Program-made: the position numbers and the translations under genes
The notes under the pieces: model-generated
What the model saw: the letters and a program-made list of their open reading frames with translations, nothing else
The model's database searches: none
Told to the model about the DNA's origin: nothing
Sequence record: NC_107013.1
DNA from: a phage
Length of the DNA: 41,265 bases
Strand: one strand, 5' to 3'
In this document: positions 7,118-38,981 of the stretch, piece by piece
Position numbering within the stretch: the stretch's first letter is position 1
Layout: each line of letters begins with the position of its first letter

Positions 7118-7578
7118 TGATGGGCTTTTTCAAAGTAACTGATGTACCGTCACGTCGCGTAGTCCAGTACGCCCGCGTGTCTGGCTCTGGTGAGAACGTG
7201 GTGTTTATTGATGATGAAAGTGTACTCGGTACACCCGAAGACGATATGCCGTTTGCAGATAAAACCGGTATTGCGTTACCCGCGGCGGGCATGCTTTATG
7301 AAATTCCGTATCTGGCGGATGCAGGTGACGTGTATTTCTCGGTGCAACCGAAAGACACCGAGCTGGTCGACGGTAGCGCCACCATCACCGTCGAAGTTAA
7401 GGCGGGTAAAGCGCCGTGTGTACTGACCTGGTACAAAGACGGCAAGGAAGTGGTAAACGCCCCAGAAGAGGCTTTGTCTCTGACGGTTAATGCTGTCGGT
7501 GAATACTTCGTTAAAGTCACCGATGCCGATGGGGTAGAGGCCGTAAGTAAAGCAGCGAAGGTTACTAAGCCAGAATAA
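7117..7578 (+). CDS. Virion-associated protein with Ig-like C-terminal domain (putative)
   Basis: TAATG coupling to upstream gene; beta-rich C-terminal segment. Confidence 0.4.
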   Translation: MMGFFKVTDVPSRRVVQYARVSGSGENVVFIDDESVLGTPEDDMPFADKTGIALPAAGMLYEIPYLADAGDVYFSVQPKDTELVDGSATITVEVKAGKAPCVLTWYKDGKEVVNAPEEALSLTVNAVGEYFVKVTDADGVEAVSKAAKVTKPE

Positions 7579-7583
7579 ACTGA

Positions 7584-7604
7584 AGCCCCGAAAGGGGCTT
7601 TTTA
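7584..7604 (+). terminator. Rho-independent terminator
   Basis: AGCCCC-GAAA-GGGGCT hairpin followed by TTTTT. Confidence 0.65.
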
Positions 7605-7667
7605 GTGCCTGTGATTATTCCAGTTATTCCACTCAATTGTAAATGTTGGAATAAACTATTCGAATAG

Positions 7668-7696
7668 TTGACTTTTCACCAAAAATGTGCTAAGCT
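7668..7696 (+). promoter_or_regulatory. Sigma70-like promoter TTGACT-N17-TAAGCT (TG-extended -10), copy 1; overlapped upstream by the 16-bp palindrome AACTATTCGAATAGTT
   Basis: Same -35, -10 and spacer length as the promoter at 38053-38081. Confidence 0.55.
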
Positions 7697-7699
7697 CCA

Positions 7700-7810
7700 C
7701 CTGAGCTTGTGAAGTATGAACAAGCGACCGCGGCGCGGGCAGGTAACGGAGCGGGACGTAAGTCCTGAGTGTAGTTACGCTGACGCGTTCGGAAGGGCCA
7801 TACTCTATTG
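7700..7810 (+). ncRNA. Conserved promoter-proximal element, copy 1 (candidate small RNA or cis-acting leader)
   Basis: 5' 34 nt identical and 3' ~33 nt nearly identical to 38085-38197; conserved GCUUGU/ACAAGC hairpin; no conserved reading frame. Confidence 0.4.
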
Positions 7811-7875
7811 CTTGTGTAAAAAGTAACTGGTTTACTGAGATTACGCCGTTTCTATGTTTAAATGATAAGGACTAG

Positions 7876-7905
7876 CGCCCCGCTTTAAGGCGGGGCTTTA
7901 CTTAT
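7876..7905 (+). terminator. Intrinsic terminator/attenuator downstream of element copy 1
   Basis: GCCCCGC-TTTAAG-GCGGGGC hairpin then TTTACTTAT. Confidence 0.45.
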
Positions 7906-7920
7906 CGAGAAAGGGGAAAC

Positions 7921-8307
7921 ATGAATCTTAAAGCAACTGTCGTAGCGGGAGCATGTTTCATCATCCTGGCTTACGCACACGGCATCTACCAGTATCGCAG
8001 CGGCTGGAACGGAGGCCGGGCGAATCTCGTTTCTCAGCAACAGCAGAAAGCACAGGCTGAGTTAGCTAAGAAAACACAACGGCAGCAGCAGGATGAATCG
8101 AAGGCCGCCGCCGCTGATAACGAAGGCAAGACGAAATCAGAGGTAATCACCCGTGAAGTCGTTAAGTACATTAAAACGCCTGGCCGCAGCGTGTGCACTT
8201 TTGACCCTGAGCGCGTGCAGCTCAAGTCCCGCGCCGTCGCAAACGCCAATTCCATCCCCGGATACGACGATGATGCAGCCGCCGTGCAAACTGGCACTGC
8301 CAAGTAA
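7921..8307 (+). CDS. i-spanin (Rz-like): N-terminal TM, Gln/Ala/Lys-rich predicted helix, periplasmic Cys
   Basis: GAAAGGGG RBS; TM VVAGACFIILAYAHGIY; Rz-like architecture; contains an overlapped lipoprotein gene. Confidence 0.6.
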   Translation: MNLKATVVAGACFIILAYAHGIYQYRSGWNGGRANLVSQQQQKAQAELAKKTQRQQQDESKAAAADNEGKTKSEVITREVVKYIKTPGRSVCTFDPERVQLKSRAVANANSIPGYDDDAAAVQTGTAK

Positions 8308-8416
8308 CGACGCGGACGAGGATTTAGCTATTGACGTCCAGAACGCAGAATGTGTACGGCAACTGAGACTTAAAGTGTTCATGTTGCAGGATTACGTGAG
8401 GAATATTCTGGAATAG
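8153..8416 (+). CDS. o-spanin (Rz1-like) outer-membrane lipoprotein, overlapped with the i-spanin in the +1 frame
   Basis: GTG start with AGAGG RBS; signal peptide with lipobox LTLSAC; proline-rich mature part. Confidence 0.55.
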   Translation: MKSLSTLKRLAAACALLTLSACSSSPAPSQTPIPSPDTTMMQPPCKLALPSNDADEDLAIDVQNAECVRQLRLKVFMLQDYVRNILE

Positions 8417-8427
8417 TTGCCTTGTAT

Positions 8428-8473
8428 GTTGGAATAATTTATTCTTGACATGTAAATCCGGGTGGCCCGGATT
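8428..8473 (+). promoter_or_regulatory. Regulatory region: palindrome GAATAATTTATTC, -35-like TTGACA, then perfect inverted repeat AATCCGGG-TGG-CCCGGATT
   Basis: Inverted repeats read directly; no good -10 at the expected spacing. Confidence 0.3.
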
Positions 8474-8495
8474 CCAACGTCCAGGGGACATACTG

Positions 8496-9122
8496 ATGAG
8501 CGAAGAAGTGAAAGACGAAACTATCGAACAACAAGAGACTAAGACCACGTTTACCAAAGAAGAAGTTGACGCGCTGGTATCCGGTCTTAAAGCTAACAAC
8601 GAGAAGCTCTTGTCTGAAAAGAAAGCTGCTGCCGCTGCTGCGAAAGAAGCCGCAGATGCGAAGCTGAAAGCCGAACAGGAACGCGCAAAACAGAACGGCG
8701 AACTTGAGGCATTCGAGAAAACGTTGCGCAGTCAGTATGAGCCAGTACTCGCCGAGAAAGACGGTAAGATTAGCAAAATGGCTGAGCGTATCCTCGGCGC
8801 AGAACGTAAATCAGTTATCAGCCAGTTGTCTGGCATGTTGATTGATGAGAGCGCAGCGGATATTATCGCTATGATGGTCAAGACCGAATTTGACGGCGAT
8901 GACGTTGTGACCAAGTTCACAGGTGCAGATGGTAATGTCATCACCACCGACGCAGAGCAATTTAAAAAGTATCTGCGTGAGCACAAAGCATTTTCGCATC
9001 TGATTAAAGCAGATGCAGCAACCGGCGGCGGGGCTTCCGGTAACAAAAATTCTACTGGCGGGGCCGGTGGTGCGGACGTAATCCAGCAAAAACTTAACGC
9101 CAAATACGGCAAACGAGGATAA
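8496..9122 (+). CDS. Scaffolding protein (putative)
   Basis: Acidic, Ala/Lys/Glu-rich ORF directly upstream of the major capsid gene. Confidence 0.55.
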   Translation: MSEEVKDETIEQQETKTTFTKEEVDALVSGLKANNEKLLSEKKAAAAAAKEAADAKLKAEQERAKQNGELEAFEKTLRSQYEPVLAEKDGKISKMAERILGAERKSVISQLSGMLIDESAADIIAMMVKTEFDGDDVVTKFTGADGNVITTDAEQFKKYLREHKAFSHLIKADAATGGGASGNKNSTGGAGGADVIQQKLNAKYGKRG

Positions 9123-10155: not shown

Positions 10156-10323
10156 TGGAAATTAAATACGTACCAATGCCAATTACCATCGAGCAGAAGC
10201 GCGAGTATAACCGTCAGGGGTTCCGTGTGGTAGATGCTCGTTTCGCACCAGAAGGCACCGTGGTAGAATCGGCTAAAGAAGAGACACCACGCCGCCAGCG
10301 CCGGGCGAAATCAGAGGAATAAT
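10156..10323 (+). CDS. Hypothetical small basic protein
   Basis: AGGAG RBS then GTG; ORF below the 60-aa track cut-off. Confidence 0.3.
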
Positions 10324-10325
10324 TT

Positions 10326-10838
10326 ATGCCGCTAATCGTGGAAGATGGGTCGATAGTACCTGATGCCGACAGTTACGTTAGTCTGGCCGACGCCCGCGCG
10401 TTAGCGGCTAATTACGGTCTTGTGTTGCCGGCAGACGATACCGCCGCAGAGGTGGCCCTGCGCAACGGTGCTACTTATGTTGGGCTTGCAGAACCTCAGA
10501 TGTGCGGGCGTCGCGTATCCGCTGAACAGTCTCTGGCGTACCCACGTACAGGAACAACACTAAACGGCTTCACCGTAGCGGATAATGTTATCCCGTCGCA
10601 GTTAATCCGGGCACAAGTAATCGCTGCGGTTACGTATGGTGCGGGTACCGATGTTCGGGCTAACTCAGATGGGCGTTCCGTGCAGACTGAGCGTGTTGAG
10701 GGTGCTGTGACAGTGACATACTTCAACAACGGCAACAGTGGCGCCACAACCGCTATTACCGCTGCGGACGACGCATTACGCCCGTTACTGTGTGGTGGTC
10801 TTAACAATGGCTTCTCGTTTAACGTGTACCGGGGTTAA
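10326..10838 (+). CDS. Head-tail connector / head completion protein (putative)
   Basis: GAGGA RBS; position immediately after the capsid gene. Confidence 0.45.
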   Translation: MPLIVEDGSIVPDADSYVSLADARALAANYGLVLPADDTAAEVALRNGATYVGLAEPQMCGRRVSAEQSLAYPRTGTTLNGFTVADNVIPSQLIRAQVIAAVTYGAGTDVRANSDGRSVQTERVEGAVTVTYFNNGNSGATTAITAADDALRPLLCGGLNNGFSFNVYRG

Positions 10839-16307: not shown

Positions 16308-16337
16308 TTTAAACCCCTTCATTGTTGGTGTAAGTGA

Positions 16338-34230: not shown

Positions 34231-34740
34231 TTATTCTTCTTCGAAATACTTGTTCTTGATTGCTGTCAGGCGCTCCAGATACTCAGCCAGGTCTTCGTCT
34301 TTAATCGCTGCAATCTTCATCTTCTTACCGGTAAACTCTTCCAGCAGTTCGTCAGAATCGTCGCACGCGGCATCGCTTGGGCCTTCGTTAATCGCATCGT
34401 CGATAGCCTGAATCTGGTCGCGCAGAGACTGGTAATCGACTTCTTCTTTCTCTTCTTCCGGCTCTGGCGTTGGTTCCTCTACTTTGTCCTTACGCGGCTT
34501 GCGCTTCGGCTTCTCTTCTTCTGCGGGTTTAGTGTCAACGGTGTCTTCACCTTCTACCGGGATTTCTTTCCCGACGCCAGTGCCTGGGTCGACTTCAAGT
34601 ACCTCTCCCGTAGCCGACACGTCTACAAGCATTTCACCTGCGCGCTCAGCCGGCGGCACCTGTCGTTTCACACTATTTGCGGCAATCAGTTCATGTGCAA
34701 CTACGAAACGTTCCAGTAATTTTAAAAATTGGTCTAACAT
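34231..34740 (-). CDS. Hypothetical acidic protein (first gene of an early transcript)
   Basis: 169-aa Glu/Asp-rich ORF directly downstream of a class I promoter. Confidence 0.5.
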   Translation of the reverse strand: MLDQFLKLLERFVVAHELIAANSVKRQVPPAERAGEMLVDVSATGEVLEVDPGTGVGKEIPVEGEDTVDTKPAEEEKPKRKPRKDKVEEPTPEPEEEKEEVDYQSLRDQIQAIDDAINEGPSDAACDDSDELLEEFTGKKMKIAAIKDEDLAEYLERLTAIKNKYFEEE

Positions 34741-34865: not shown

Positions 34866-35081
34866 ATGCAACCATCTGAACTAGGTATCCGTGTAGAGCA
34901 ACGCCGTAAAGAACTCGGTATCTCCCAGCGCCATCTGGCTGTCCTGGCCGGTGTTTCCCAAGGCGCGATTAACCAGCTGGCACTTGGGGTAACTCAGGAC
35001 GTCCGCCCAGCGACGCTGTTTAAACTGGCGGAAGTGCTGCAAGTAGACGCCAAGTGGCTGGCGTTGGGTGAAGGGGCTTAA
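34866..35081 (+). CDS. XRE-family (Cro/CI-like) HTH transcriptional regulator
   Basis: LGISQRHLAVLAGVSQGAINQL helix-turn-helix; AAGGAG RBS; own terminator. Confidence 0.7.
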   Translation: MQPSELGIRVEQRRKELGISQRHLAVLAGVSQGAINQLALGVTQDVRPATLFKLAEVLQVDAKWLALGEGA

Positions 35082-37553: not shown

Positions 37554-37766
37554 TTATTTACAACCAGAAAACCACGCGCGCTCGGAATCATAGAAACGGC
37601 ATTTACTTAACACATCTACTGGCATCTTAATAATGCGCGTCGGTTCCGACAAATGGTTAGGCTTACATATTTCTGCATAGAATCCGCTGTCAGTAATTTC
37701 TGACGCAAACTTAAACCAGTATTTAACTTTACCGTTTTCAAAGTAACAACCCATACGCCCAATCAT
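37554..37766 (-). CDS. Hypothetical protein (70 aa)
   Basis: ATGA coupling to the upstream HTH gene. Confidence 0.45.
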   Translation of the reverse strand: MIGRMGCYFENGKVKYWFKFASEITDSGFYAEICKPNHLSEPTRIIKMPVDVLSKCRFYDSERAWFSGCK

Positions 37767-37945
37767 TTCACGTTCTCCTTAATCCACTCTTCAACTTTAT
37801 TACGGTCAAATGTTCCAGGCAAACGGCGGCCCATAACCTTAATACAACAATCCGGGAATTTACCACTGCGCAACCAGTTATTAATTGTCTGACGTGTCAC
37901 CCCGATACGCTCGGCTACTTCATTCTGGGTCATGTAATGTTGCAT
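37763..37945 (-). CDS. Small HTH DNA-binding protein (first gene of the leftward early operon)
   Basis: AGGAGA RBS before ATG 37945; motif EVAERIGVTRQTINNW. Confidence 0.6.
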   Translation of the reverse strand: MQHYMTQNEVAERIGVTRQTINNWLRSGKFPDCCIKVMGRRLPGTFDRNKVEEWIKENVK

Positions 37946-38052: not shown

Positions 38053-38081
38053 TTGACTTTTACTGAGAAATATGGTAAGCT
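38053..38081 (+). promoter_or_regulatory. Sigma70-like promoter TTGACT-N17-TAAGCT (TG-extended -10), copy 2
   Basis: Same -35/-10/spacer as 7668-7696. Confidence 0.55.
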
Positions 38082-38602: not shown

Positions 38603-38802
38603 TGGAAGAATTATTTGAAGAACTGAAACATCATGATTTCGAGGAAATATATTTCGTAGCTGAACGCTACGAGGTGCATTTATCGGACGGGATTACAATT
38701 ATTACGATGGATAGCCAGCAAATGCTAAATAGCTTACAGGCAATCAAAACGGCATCGAATCGTGATGCTTGTGCCGACGACTCTGAGGGAGGTTGCCGTT
38801 AA
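38602..38802 (+). CDS. Hypothetical acidic protein (66 aa)
   Basis: TGATG coupling; AAGGGG RBS. Confidence 0.45.
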   Translation: MEELFEELKHHDFEEIYFVAERYEVHLSDGITIITMDSQQMLNSLQAIKTASNRDACADDSEGGCR

Positions 38803-38981
38803 TGCGAATCCGTATAACTGACCGCAGGCTTGTCCGTATAACTGACCGCAGGCTTATAGATTTCGGTATCTCGGTAGGTGATGTTTTTCCGGCGTTCAGC
38901 ATCAACCATTATGGTTTTATGATTGAGTACAAAGGGTCGTTATTGTTCGTGTATCGGGATGAATGTGAGGTTCTGGTATGA
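38802..38981 (+). CDS. Hypothetical protein containing an in-frame 8-aa duplication (RITDRRLV / RITDRRLI)
   Basis: TAATG coupling; ORF spans the 24-bp tandem repeat. Confidence 0.4.
   Translation: MRIRITDRRLVRITDRRLIDFGISVGDVFPAFSINHYGFMIEYKGSLLFVYRDECEVLV
38809..38856 (+). repeat. Tandem direct repeat, 2 x 24 bp (TCCGTATAACTGACCGCAGGCTT[G/A])
   Basis: Two adjacent copies differing at one position. Confidence 0.85.

Follow-up and report, generated by a model that had tools for sequence, protein, structure and literature searches.

Conserved heptad arrays as candidate operator-type repeats at two predicted internal promoters of a Kagunavirus phage

The window analyzed here, the 41,265-bp sequence NC_107013.1, is a complete phage genome with 98% identity to K1H-like Kagunavirus phages of the subfamily Guernseyvirinae; the 127-nt repeat shared by its ends represents an assembly overlap. 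Guernseyvirinae are common phages of Salmonella and E. coli and are applied in therapy and biocontrol. To our knowledge they encode no RNA polymerase of their own, and no late activator is recognized in them. In the rightward structural-gene (head-gene) region of the window, two intergenic regions flanking the spanin genes contain arrays of a short repeat (site 1 and site 2), adjoining the predicted promoters P1 and P2, respectively (Table 1). A sequence-only reading had described recurrent GGAATAA/TTATTCC inverted repeats and palindromes at these places as possible binding sites for a dimeric regulator. All the strings it quoted are present, lying 1-5 nt away from where it had placed them.

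The recurring unit of both arrays is the heptad (T)GGAATA(A/G) with the core GAATA. Heptads are combined into a direct pair with a 2-nt gap (7-2-7) and into inverted pairs with a 1-nt gap (7-1-7). Five GAATA/TATTC cores are found within 60 bp at each site (7616-7666 and 8401-8444), two being the count of the next best window in the genome; five cores per 60 bp never arose in 300 second-order Markov genomes. The string TGGAATAA has four genomic copies, all within the two arrays, and GAATA-N3-TATTC has two, a dyad set likewise confined to the arrays. Heptad pairs with at least 6/7 matches and 7-10 bp apart occur four times in the genome, three of them in the arrays, against a simulated mean of 1.0. 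Furthermore, at either promoter the centres of the two pairs are separated by 32-33 bp (-80 and -48 at P1, -47 and -14 at P2), about three helical turns, so the two pairs would face the same side of the helix. At site 1 the fifth core, GAATAG at 7662-7667, is supplied by the palindrome AACTATTCGAATAGTT and lies directly against the P1 -35, and GAATAGTTG(A/C)CT is common to the palindrome region and P2. At site 2 the cores of GGAATATTC and GGAATAG overlap the last Rz1 codons (RNILE-stop), and the dyad of the inverted pair overlaps the spacer and the -10 of P2. The 17-nt-gap inverted repeat formerly proposed upstream of P1 has its two strings at 7624-7630 and 7648-7654 (rather than from 7622 and 7646), but pairing them in this way joins members of separate pairs; the units TTATTCC at 7615-7621, GGAATATTC at 8400-8408 and GGAATAG at 8410-8416 had been missed. 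The recurrence of the ATGTTGGAATAA motif upstream of the scaffold gene had been recognized correctly, its position being 8426-8437 instead of 8421-8434. Elsewhere in the genome, GGAATAATTTATGCC at 10316-10330 is one mismatch from a perfect 7-1-7 dyad; it lies at the stop/start junction between a 55-residue open reading frame and the head-tail adaptor gene and may merely be a ribosome-binding site with stop and start codons (GAGGAATAATTTATG).

The predicted promoter P2 was compared in six lineages aligned on the -10, namely two Kagunavirus scaffold types, Jerseyvirus, Cornellvirus, phiEap-2-like phages and Hafnia phage TS33. GTTGC (-36 to -32) and GAATAATTTATTCTT (-21 to -6) are invariant in all six. 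P2 matches the sigma-70 consensus at 4/6 positions in each hexamer with a spacer of 17 (within the 16-18 bp range), has A at position 2 and T at position 6 of its -10, and keeps its -35 and -10 hexamers in relatives; the 5' half of the spacer varies freely, whereas its 3' half coincides with the left arm of the heptad dyad, which is invariant. The P2 -10 itself is the right arm of GAATAATTTATTC, and the context of the P2 -35 resembles that of P1 (GAATAGTTGCCT versus GAATAGTTGACT). The sequence-only reading had tentatively seen a -10-deficient scaffold-gene promoter in the TTGACA hexamer further downstream. That no usable -10 follows this hexamer is correct, but it is unlikely to be the promoter: P2, TTGC(C/T)T-17-TATTCT, is invariant in the six lineages, so no -10-deficient promoter is needed. 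TTGACA is retained in Kagunavirus, Cornellvirus and phiEap-2-like phages and replaced in Jerseyvirus (TTGTTA) and TS33 (TTATAT). The core promoter of P1 recurs at 38053 as copy 2 (TTGACT-17-TGnTAAGCT), where the idea of motifs accompanying this promoter fails, as no heptads are found there. The heptads would thus represent an add-on control.

A motif search in the genome and in relatives, the check proposed earlier, found clusters at the two sites only, conserved across Guernseyvirinae genera. In 4/4 complete genomes (this window, SE2, FSL SP-031 and TS33) the top GAATA clusters were the same two sites. In a set of 46-47 distinct IMG/VR relatives the repeats are almost unchanged, the substitutions being located in the promoter spacers and between the repeats. 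Core centres at P1 are located at -85/-84, -76/-75, -52 and -44 in five lineages. In TS33 they are at -83, -75, -51 and -42, with direct and inverted pairs exchanged: the direct pair at 7615-7630, which Kagunavirus and Jerseyvirus share without change and Cornellvirus and phiEap-2 have at matching positions, is an inverted pair in TS33. At P2, cores at -18 and -10 occur in all lineages, the upstream core is at -39/-40 in 4/5 lineages and at -43 in phiEap-2, and further cores lie between -46 and -51 in Kagunavirus, Jerseyvirus and phiEap-2. Such fixed positions with interchangeable pair types fit a bound protein better than a promoter core element. The arms of the dyad at 7648-7662 are kept around a variable 3-nt centre (AAC, CTT or AAT). 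Within Rz1, GGAATATTCTGGAATAG is nearly invariant at synonymous sites whereas neighbouring codons vary synonymously, and around 8400-8416 the Kagunavirus and Jerseyvirus sequences show single differences at 8397 and 8407. Jerseyvirus, with a spanin 64% identical, keeps ATTATTCCAGTTATTCC, GGAATA and TATTC at site 1 and has lost the right half of the palindrome together with ATGTTG. The 16-bp palindrome formerly placed at 7653-7668 does exist, one position further on, but it is confined to Kagunavirus; Jerseyvirus and Cornellvirus read TTTATTCAAAAAGTAG or similar.

Two promoter-type explanations of the repeats were rejected. The TGGAATAAT repeats do not behave as extended -10 elements (TGnTATAAT), as the ninth base is T, C, A or G and the first T, A or C, with only GAATA(A/G) constant; the would-be -7T and the upstream TG therefore vary among the copies, and a -10 identity was accordingly dismissed. 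A leftward promoter, TTTACA-18-TGgAATAAT (7643-7614), was also considered as the cause of conservation. In relatives carrying a leftward gene, the final T of its -10 is replaced (AATAAG, AATACG), which argues against it, and in this window its transcript would meet a terminator immediately. Such leftward genes are frequent: in most relatives the terminator of the Hoc-like gene is swapped for a foreign leftward gene (endonuclease, PAPS reductase or small open reading frames). The insertion hot spot is the junction 7601-7615 (relatives L001-L036 and L092), and homology restarts exactly at the first heptad, 7616, whatever precedes it. In Cornellvirus a comparable leftward insert ends at the GGAATAG of site 2.

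Table 1 Features at and around the two heptad arrays, with a candidate binding protein encoded elsewhere in the window.
Feature	Position	Strand	Remarks
Intergenic region 1	7579-7920		Between the Hoc-like head-decoration gene and spanin gene Rz
Terminator-like hairpin 3' of the Hoc-like gene	7583-7600	+	Upstream boundary of intergenic region 1
7-2-7 direct pair TTATTCC-AG-TTATTCC	7615-7630 (7615-7621 and 7624-7630)	-	Core centres -85 and -76 from predicted P1 start
ATGTTGGAATAA	7643-7654 (site 1) and 8426-8437 (site 2)		One copy in each array
7-1-7 inverted pair GGAATAA-A-CTATTCG	7648-7662		GAATA-N3-TATTC; core centres -52 and -44 from predicted P1 start
Perfect 16-bp palindrome AACTATTCGAATAGTT	7654-7669		Overlaps -35 TTGACT by 2 nt; Kagunavirus-specific
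Predicted promoter P1	-35 TTGACT 7668-7673; extended -10 TGcTAAGCT 7688-7696	+	17-nt spacer; predicted start ~7703
Structured RNA, ~200 nt	~7703-7900	+	From P1 to terminator hairpin 7877-7896, then the spanin genes
Spanin genes	7921-8307 and 8153-8416		Downstream of terminator 7877-7896; Rz1 ends at 8416
GGAATATTC and GGAATAG	8400-8408 and 8410-8416		Three cores at -49, -46 and -39 from predicted P2 start
Intergenic region 2	8417-8495		From the end of Rz1, the embedded gene for the outer-membrane spanin, to the scaffold gene
Predicted promoter P2	-35 TTGCCT 8417-8422; -10 TATTCT 8440-8445	+	17-nt spacer; predicted start ~8452
7-1-7 inverted pair GGAATAA-T-TTATTCT	8431-8445		Dyad GAATAATTTATTC 8432-8444; core centres -18 and -10
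TTGACA hexamer	8445-8450	+	28 bp downstream of the P2 -35; no -10 after it
RNA hairpin AAUCCGGG-UGG-CCCGGAUU (DNA AATCCGGG-TGG-CCCGGATT)	8455-8473	+	Starts 3 nt after predicted P2 start
AP2-like protein, 97 residues	40579-40872		Just upstream of the holin genes; conserved N-terminal MSLATDILK

Taken together, the heptads are probably operator-type recognition repeats for a sequence-specific DNA-binding protein that controls the two internal promoters. Such a protein would bind (T)GGAATA(A/G) units as a dimer or higher oligomer, and the arrays would set the timing and strength with which P1 and P2 fire. P1, with pairs at about -80 and -48, would yield the ~200-nt structured RNA and, when polymerase reads through the terminator of this RNA, also spanin transcripts; the mRNA for scaffold and capsid, headed by a conserved 5' hairpin, would come from P2, with pairs at about -47 and -14. 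We infer both the binding of a protein and the firing of P1 and P2 where predicted from the sequences compared here. Given that a protein binds, net repression at P2 is, by a modest preference, its expected effect. The P2 dyad covers the -10 and half of the spacer, and some Cornellvirus and phiEap-2 relatives have heptads inside the P1 spacer as well, pointing to operator-type negative control at P2. The main alternative for the sign is that the upstream pair at -47/-48 helps to recruit polymerase, and one protein could do both. The proposal of dimeric-regulator sites therefore holds in that the repeats are non-random, conserved and laid out as dyads and direct pairs that fit an oligomeric protein beside rightward promoters, but not in the palindromes chosen, the promoter or the likely sign; with P2 conserved, a protein at the GAATAATTTATTC dyad would more likely block RNA polymerase than activate a -10-deficient promoter. 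The arrays are a new example of the familiar operator or activator repeats at phage promoters.

Candidate binders were sought among the phage proteins. The AP2-like protein has homologues in all four Guernseyvirinae lineages (phrog_9632 and phrog_4947 in PHROGs, function unknown there). The window protein itself has no Pfam match, small homologues match PF00847 below threshold, and one large homologue matches it at 7e-33; the family profile matches the PDB AP2 domains of WRI1 (4e-4) and TEM1 (7e-3). The Kagunavirus version is without the first beta-strand. Its presence in all four lineages together with the AP2/ERF profile match would make this protein the best phage-encoded candidate. An XRE-type helix-turn-helix protein (34866-35081) is also present in all four lineages but was rejected as the heptad binder, its recognition helix having diverged. 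A different palindrome family, TGAATAG-N4-CTATTAT, is found at 16337, 29086, 32640, 34777 and 38367; its AATAG-N4-CTATT core occurs five times versus ~0.04 expected, lies across the spacer and -10 of early-type promoters close to consensus, and is present in Kagunavirus and Jerseyvirus only, being absent from Cornellvirus and TS33. This lineage restriction and the diverged recognition helix make that palindrome a more plausible partner of the XRE protein than the heptads, and it is probably the operator of this early protein. AATAG-N4-CTATT has already been published as a PHIRE 'phage promoter' consensus (PMC9825357), and its ascription there to a phage RNA polymerase is wrong. The HTH_17 (excisionase-like) protein at 37766-37945 was rejected because it is limited to Kagunavirus and Jerseyvirus: tblastn against Cornellvirus and TS33 gave no homologue, and of ten additional proteins from FSL SP-031, TS33 and SE2, including open reading frames around the equivalent region, only SE2's own homologue matched HTH_17. 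Proteins of the NarL or ribbon-helix-helix type were not found in the phage.

Host factors and known systems were compared in the same way. Lrp is a highly conserved enterobacterial protein that uses multiple sites about three helical turns apart and activates or represses. In the arrays, the half-sites (A/G)GAAT...ATTC(T/C) resemble those of Lrp, exactly AGAAT and ATTCT in TS33, but the dyad centre is 5 nt (5-5-5) rather than 3 nt (5-3-5). Ten host-factor consensus strings were compared, the Lrp consensus AGAATwwwATTCT / yAGhAwATTwTdCTr being that quoted in PMC5554404. With the latter the arrays scored 11-12/15, four other 15-mers of the genome scored 13, and many equalled the arrays' 12. The best matches for other factors were 6/8 for RcsB, 12/16 for ArgR, 9/14 for IclR, 5/7 for Fis, 7/9 for IHF, 6/10 for CRP and 6/8 for DnaA. 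The E. coli NanR operator, (GGTATA)2-3, is bound cooperatively by several dimers, needs at least two close repeats and overlaps the promoter region (PMC8012715). The arrays share with it short GGnATA units and an 8-9 bp period, and the direct pair GGAATAACTGGAATAA matches GGTATANNNGGTATA at 10/12 specified positions. However, the third base is A and not T in every copy, direct and inverted pairs are mixed, and most lie upstream of the promoter; since all copies read GGAATA, spacing alone agrees, and the likeness may serve as an analogy and a lead but not as membership. NarL/NarP 7-2-7 sites (TACYYMT) and the heptads of the pSM19035 omega repressor (WATCACW) are read in either orientation, with cooperative occupancy of at least two units. 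The arrays share their 7-bp units, 0-2 bp apart, direct or inverted, at or upstream of promoters, whereas the heptad sequence is unrelated. Mor/C of phage Mu and Ogr of phage P2 are activators of late promoters that use dyads near the -35 of weak sigma-70 structural-gene promoters. Here, too, a dyad lies at the -35 of such a promoter or immediately 5' of it, but the best dyad extends over the -10, which the sites of those activators do not overlap, and no homologue of Mor/C or Ogr was detected.

To investigate the wider distribution of the arrays, viral contigs were searched for exact arrays, which returned all Guernseyvirinae lineages and three further groups. In Hanrivervirus (T1-like, Drexlerviridae; Shigella phage pSf-1, L091 3365-3405), four heptads lie in an early, divergent intergenic region and form two direct pairs facing outward. 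In a separate group of ~41-kb phages (L052 1289-1327), a four-heptad array upstream of the terminase operon ends 3 nt before a TTGCGG-16-TGgTATACT promoter and adjoins three DnaA-box-like TGTGGATAA repeats and an A/T-rich (TA)n tract. The third match sits in apparent coding sequence and was treated as chance, about one random match being expected. No regulator shared between this phage and the other array-bearing phages was found: the proteins in common are an ATPase, a polynucleotide kinase and an exonuclease, and otherwise there is only generic helix-turn-helix or AP2 similarity in unrelated proteins. The AP2-like protein is absent from the T1-like phages. The constancy of the heptad across genera whose DNA-binding proteins have diverged, together with the arrays in unrelated phages, leads us to lean slightly toward a host-encoded binder. 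In a broader version, a tentative idea with a small chance of being right, the array would be a portable module on which a single conserved enterobacterial host protein, or RNA polymerase itself, docks. Guernseyvirinae, Hanrivervirus and the ~41-kb group would have acquired the array independently, coupling structural or packaging promoters to the state of the host, and the protein would read heptads either way round, at fixed positions and on one face of the helix. No literature relevant to a GGAATAA motif or to Guernseyvirinae promoters was found.

Several observations weigh against operator-type repeats read by a dedicated protein. The Kagunavirus genomes are 95-99% identical over the region, so only between-genus comparisons carry weight. 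P1 and P2 each match the consensus at 8/12 positions and neither was listed by the promoter scan, P2 falling below its 9-of-12 threshold; moreover, all register positions were counted from predicted -10 hexamers, and the one RNA-seq study of a Kagunavirus reports no transcription start sites. The sign is ambiguous, as -80 and -48 are activator-like positions and -14 is repressor-like. As for the binder, the AP2-like family shows little conservation in its DNA-contacting sheet, making it a weaker candidate for reading an invariant heptad, and none of the ten host-factor consensus sequences fits. A scan of 185,579 species genomes gave 117 array matches, and among the 80 listed no enterobacterial chromosomal array was found, barring one Enterobacterales insect endosymbiont; the others come from non-enterobacterial genomes, many of them A/T-rich. 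Finally, the core centres at -52/-44 (and -51/-42) coincide with the UP-element subsites of the C-terminal domain of the RNA polymerase alpha subunit (alpha-CTD), so part of the array could act without a dedicated factor.

This last point leads to the view that the repeats are parts of the promoters, serving as UP-element-like docking sites for alpha-CTD or as intrinsically bent DNA that strengthens weak promoters with no regulator. The promoter-proximal pair lies in the UP-element zone (-55 to -41 at P1, -52 to -36 at P2), both promoters are below consensus at the 8/12 given above, and tolerance of either orientation, invariance in phages sharing hosts and recurrence in unrelated phages would be natural if the reader were the host polymerase. 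Nevertheless, we regard this explanation as unlikely. The UP consensus NNAAAWWTWTTTTNNNAAANNN (-59 to -38) is matched at 2/14 specified positions at both promoters in the canonical register and at 10/14 at the best shift, and an invariant G and C with exact repetition of a 7-mer is unexpected for minor-groove reading of A/T tracts. Each polymerase has two alpha-CTDs, yet a second pair stands at -80 at P1 and a pair at -18/-10 at P2, where alpha cannot act, and the same core promoter does without heptads at copy 2. The arrangement first proposed, in which a dimeric activator on the palindromes switches on the TTGACA promoter lacking a -10 and the 16-bp palindrome acts likewise at the copy-1 promoter, is very improbable. 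Both sites do read ATGTTGGAATAA, then a TATTC arm, then a TTGAC(T/A) hexamer; the centre of the palindrome at 7661.5 is -41.5 from the predicted start, a classic activator position, and TTGACA persists in the three groups named above. Yet it is gone in Jerseyvirus and TS33 although everything 5' of it is invariant, no -10 follows in any lineage, and the 17-nt window enters a covarying hairpin. Furthermore, ATGTTG is not conserved (TTCAGG and GTAAGT in Jerseyvirus), the palindrome is missing outside Kagunavirus, and a complete conserved promoter, P2, stands 28 bp upstream.

A role outside transcription appears improbable, whether as replication-origin iterons, as a packaging or architectural site, or as linkers for module recombination. 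The array of the ~41-kb group, beside its three TGTGGATAA repeats and (TA)n tract, has an origin-like layout, foreign leftward genes are inserted in relatives exactly at the array edges at both sites, as expected for recombination junctions, and P1 transcription could prime or activate an origin. Against this, the arrays keep a fixed register to the -35 and -10 in all Guernseyvirinae lineages, which a pure origin or packaging site does not need; their place among the head genes is distant from the genes for replication and terminase, and no DnaA boxes adjoin them in the window. That the repeats are functionless, kept by kinship and clustered through A/T-rich intergenic DNA, is scarcely credible. 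The near identity of the Kagunavirus genomes would allow it, but the repeats and their positions are kept in genera with spanins only 47-64% identical, flanking non-coding and synonymous sites vary, and the simulations never reproduced the clustering.

The transcripts predicted from P1 and P2 contain conserved structures of their own. The terminator stem that ends the ~200-nt RNA shows compensatory changes in relatives, and as this terminator lies between P1 and the spanin genes, the latter would be reached from P1 only by read-through. A second copy of the RNA is located at 38088-~38290, downstream of the 38053 promoter, with the 5' ~140 nt duplicated at 86-89% identity. Several helices of the RNA covary across Kagunavirus, Jerseyvirus and the copy-2 versions, one outer-helix pair being UA in 7 sequences, CG in 5 and AU in 2. 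Rfam gave no family at gathering score in the whole window and only chance-level matches in 7560-8520. Both copies head long terminator-containing operons, an arrangement reminiscent of the phage HK022 antitermination RNAs putL/putR or of the lambda PR'-tR' 6S RNA.

The inverted repeat downstream of P2, formerly placed at 8453-8471 and taken for a regulator site, is instead a covarying RNA hairpin. In 12 distinct sequences 96.9% of cells were paired, against at most 49% in slid controls; 5/8 pairs showed compensatory changes, none of 500 shuffles reached its covariation score, and the U-G wobbles are consistent with the + strand. The stem is followed by CCAACG with no U-run, so it is not a terminator, and it was unlisted in the terminator scan. 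This element is thus a conserved RNA hairpin at the predicted 5' end of the scaffold mRNA and not a protein operator. The 5' end of ompA mRNA carries a terminal stabilizer hairpin, and the element here likewise starts within 2-4 nt of the 5' end predicted for a highly expressed mRNA and shows compensatory changes; unlike in ompA, the 5' end is a predicted one, and an alternative would be a role as translational operator for the scaffold protein. Downstream of it are a ribosome-binding site (AGGGGA) and ATG 8496, at which homology to the window stops exactly in many K1G-type relatives. The length of the K1H RefSeq scaffold coding sequence equals the open reading frame from the TTG at 8445, a start that would put the hairpin inside the coding sequence. 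Based on the ribosome-binding site, the ATG and the K1G-type homology breaks, the true scaffold start is likely ATG 8496 and not TTG 8445.

Two further features of the genome were noted. A perfect 23-bp tandem duplication, TCCGTATAACTGACCGCAGGCTT twice with 1 nt between (38809-38855), lies inside the small open reading frame 38793-38981. The product of the first gene of a leftward early operon (34231-34740) is highly acidic, has 169 residues, is conserved in all four lineages and shows no known domain (phrog_3127); it might serve as a DNA mimic or in host takeover.

The arrays and the two conserved internal promoters offer a direct entry to late-gene control in Guernseyvirinae, and the corrected promoter P2 with its 5' hairpin shifts the likely start of the scaffold gene. 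Should the binder turn out to be a host protein that T1-like phages also use, it would represent a host dependency affecting phage yield and could explain condition-dependent infection.

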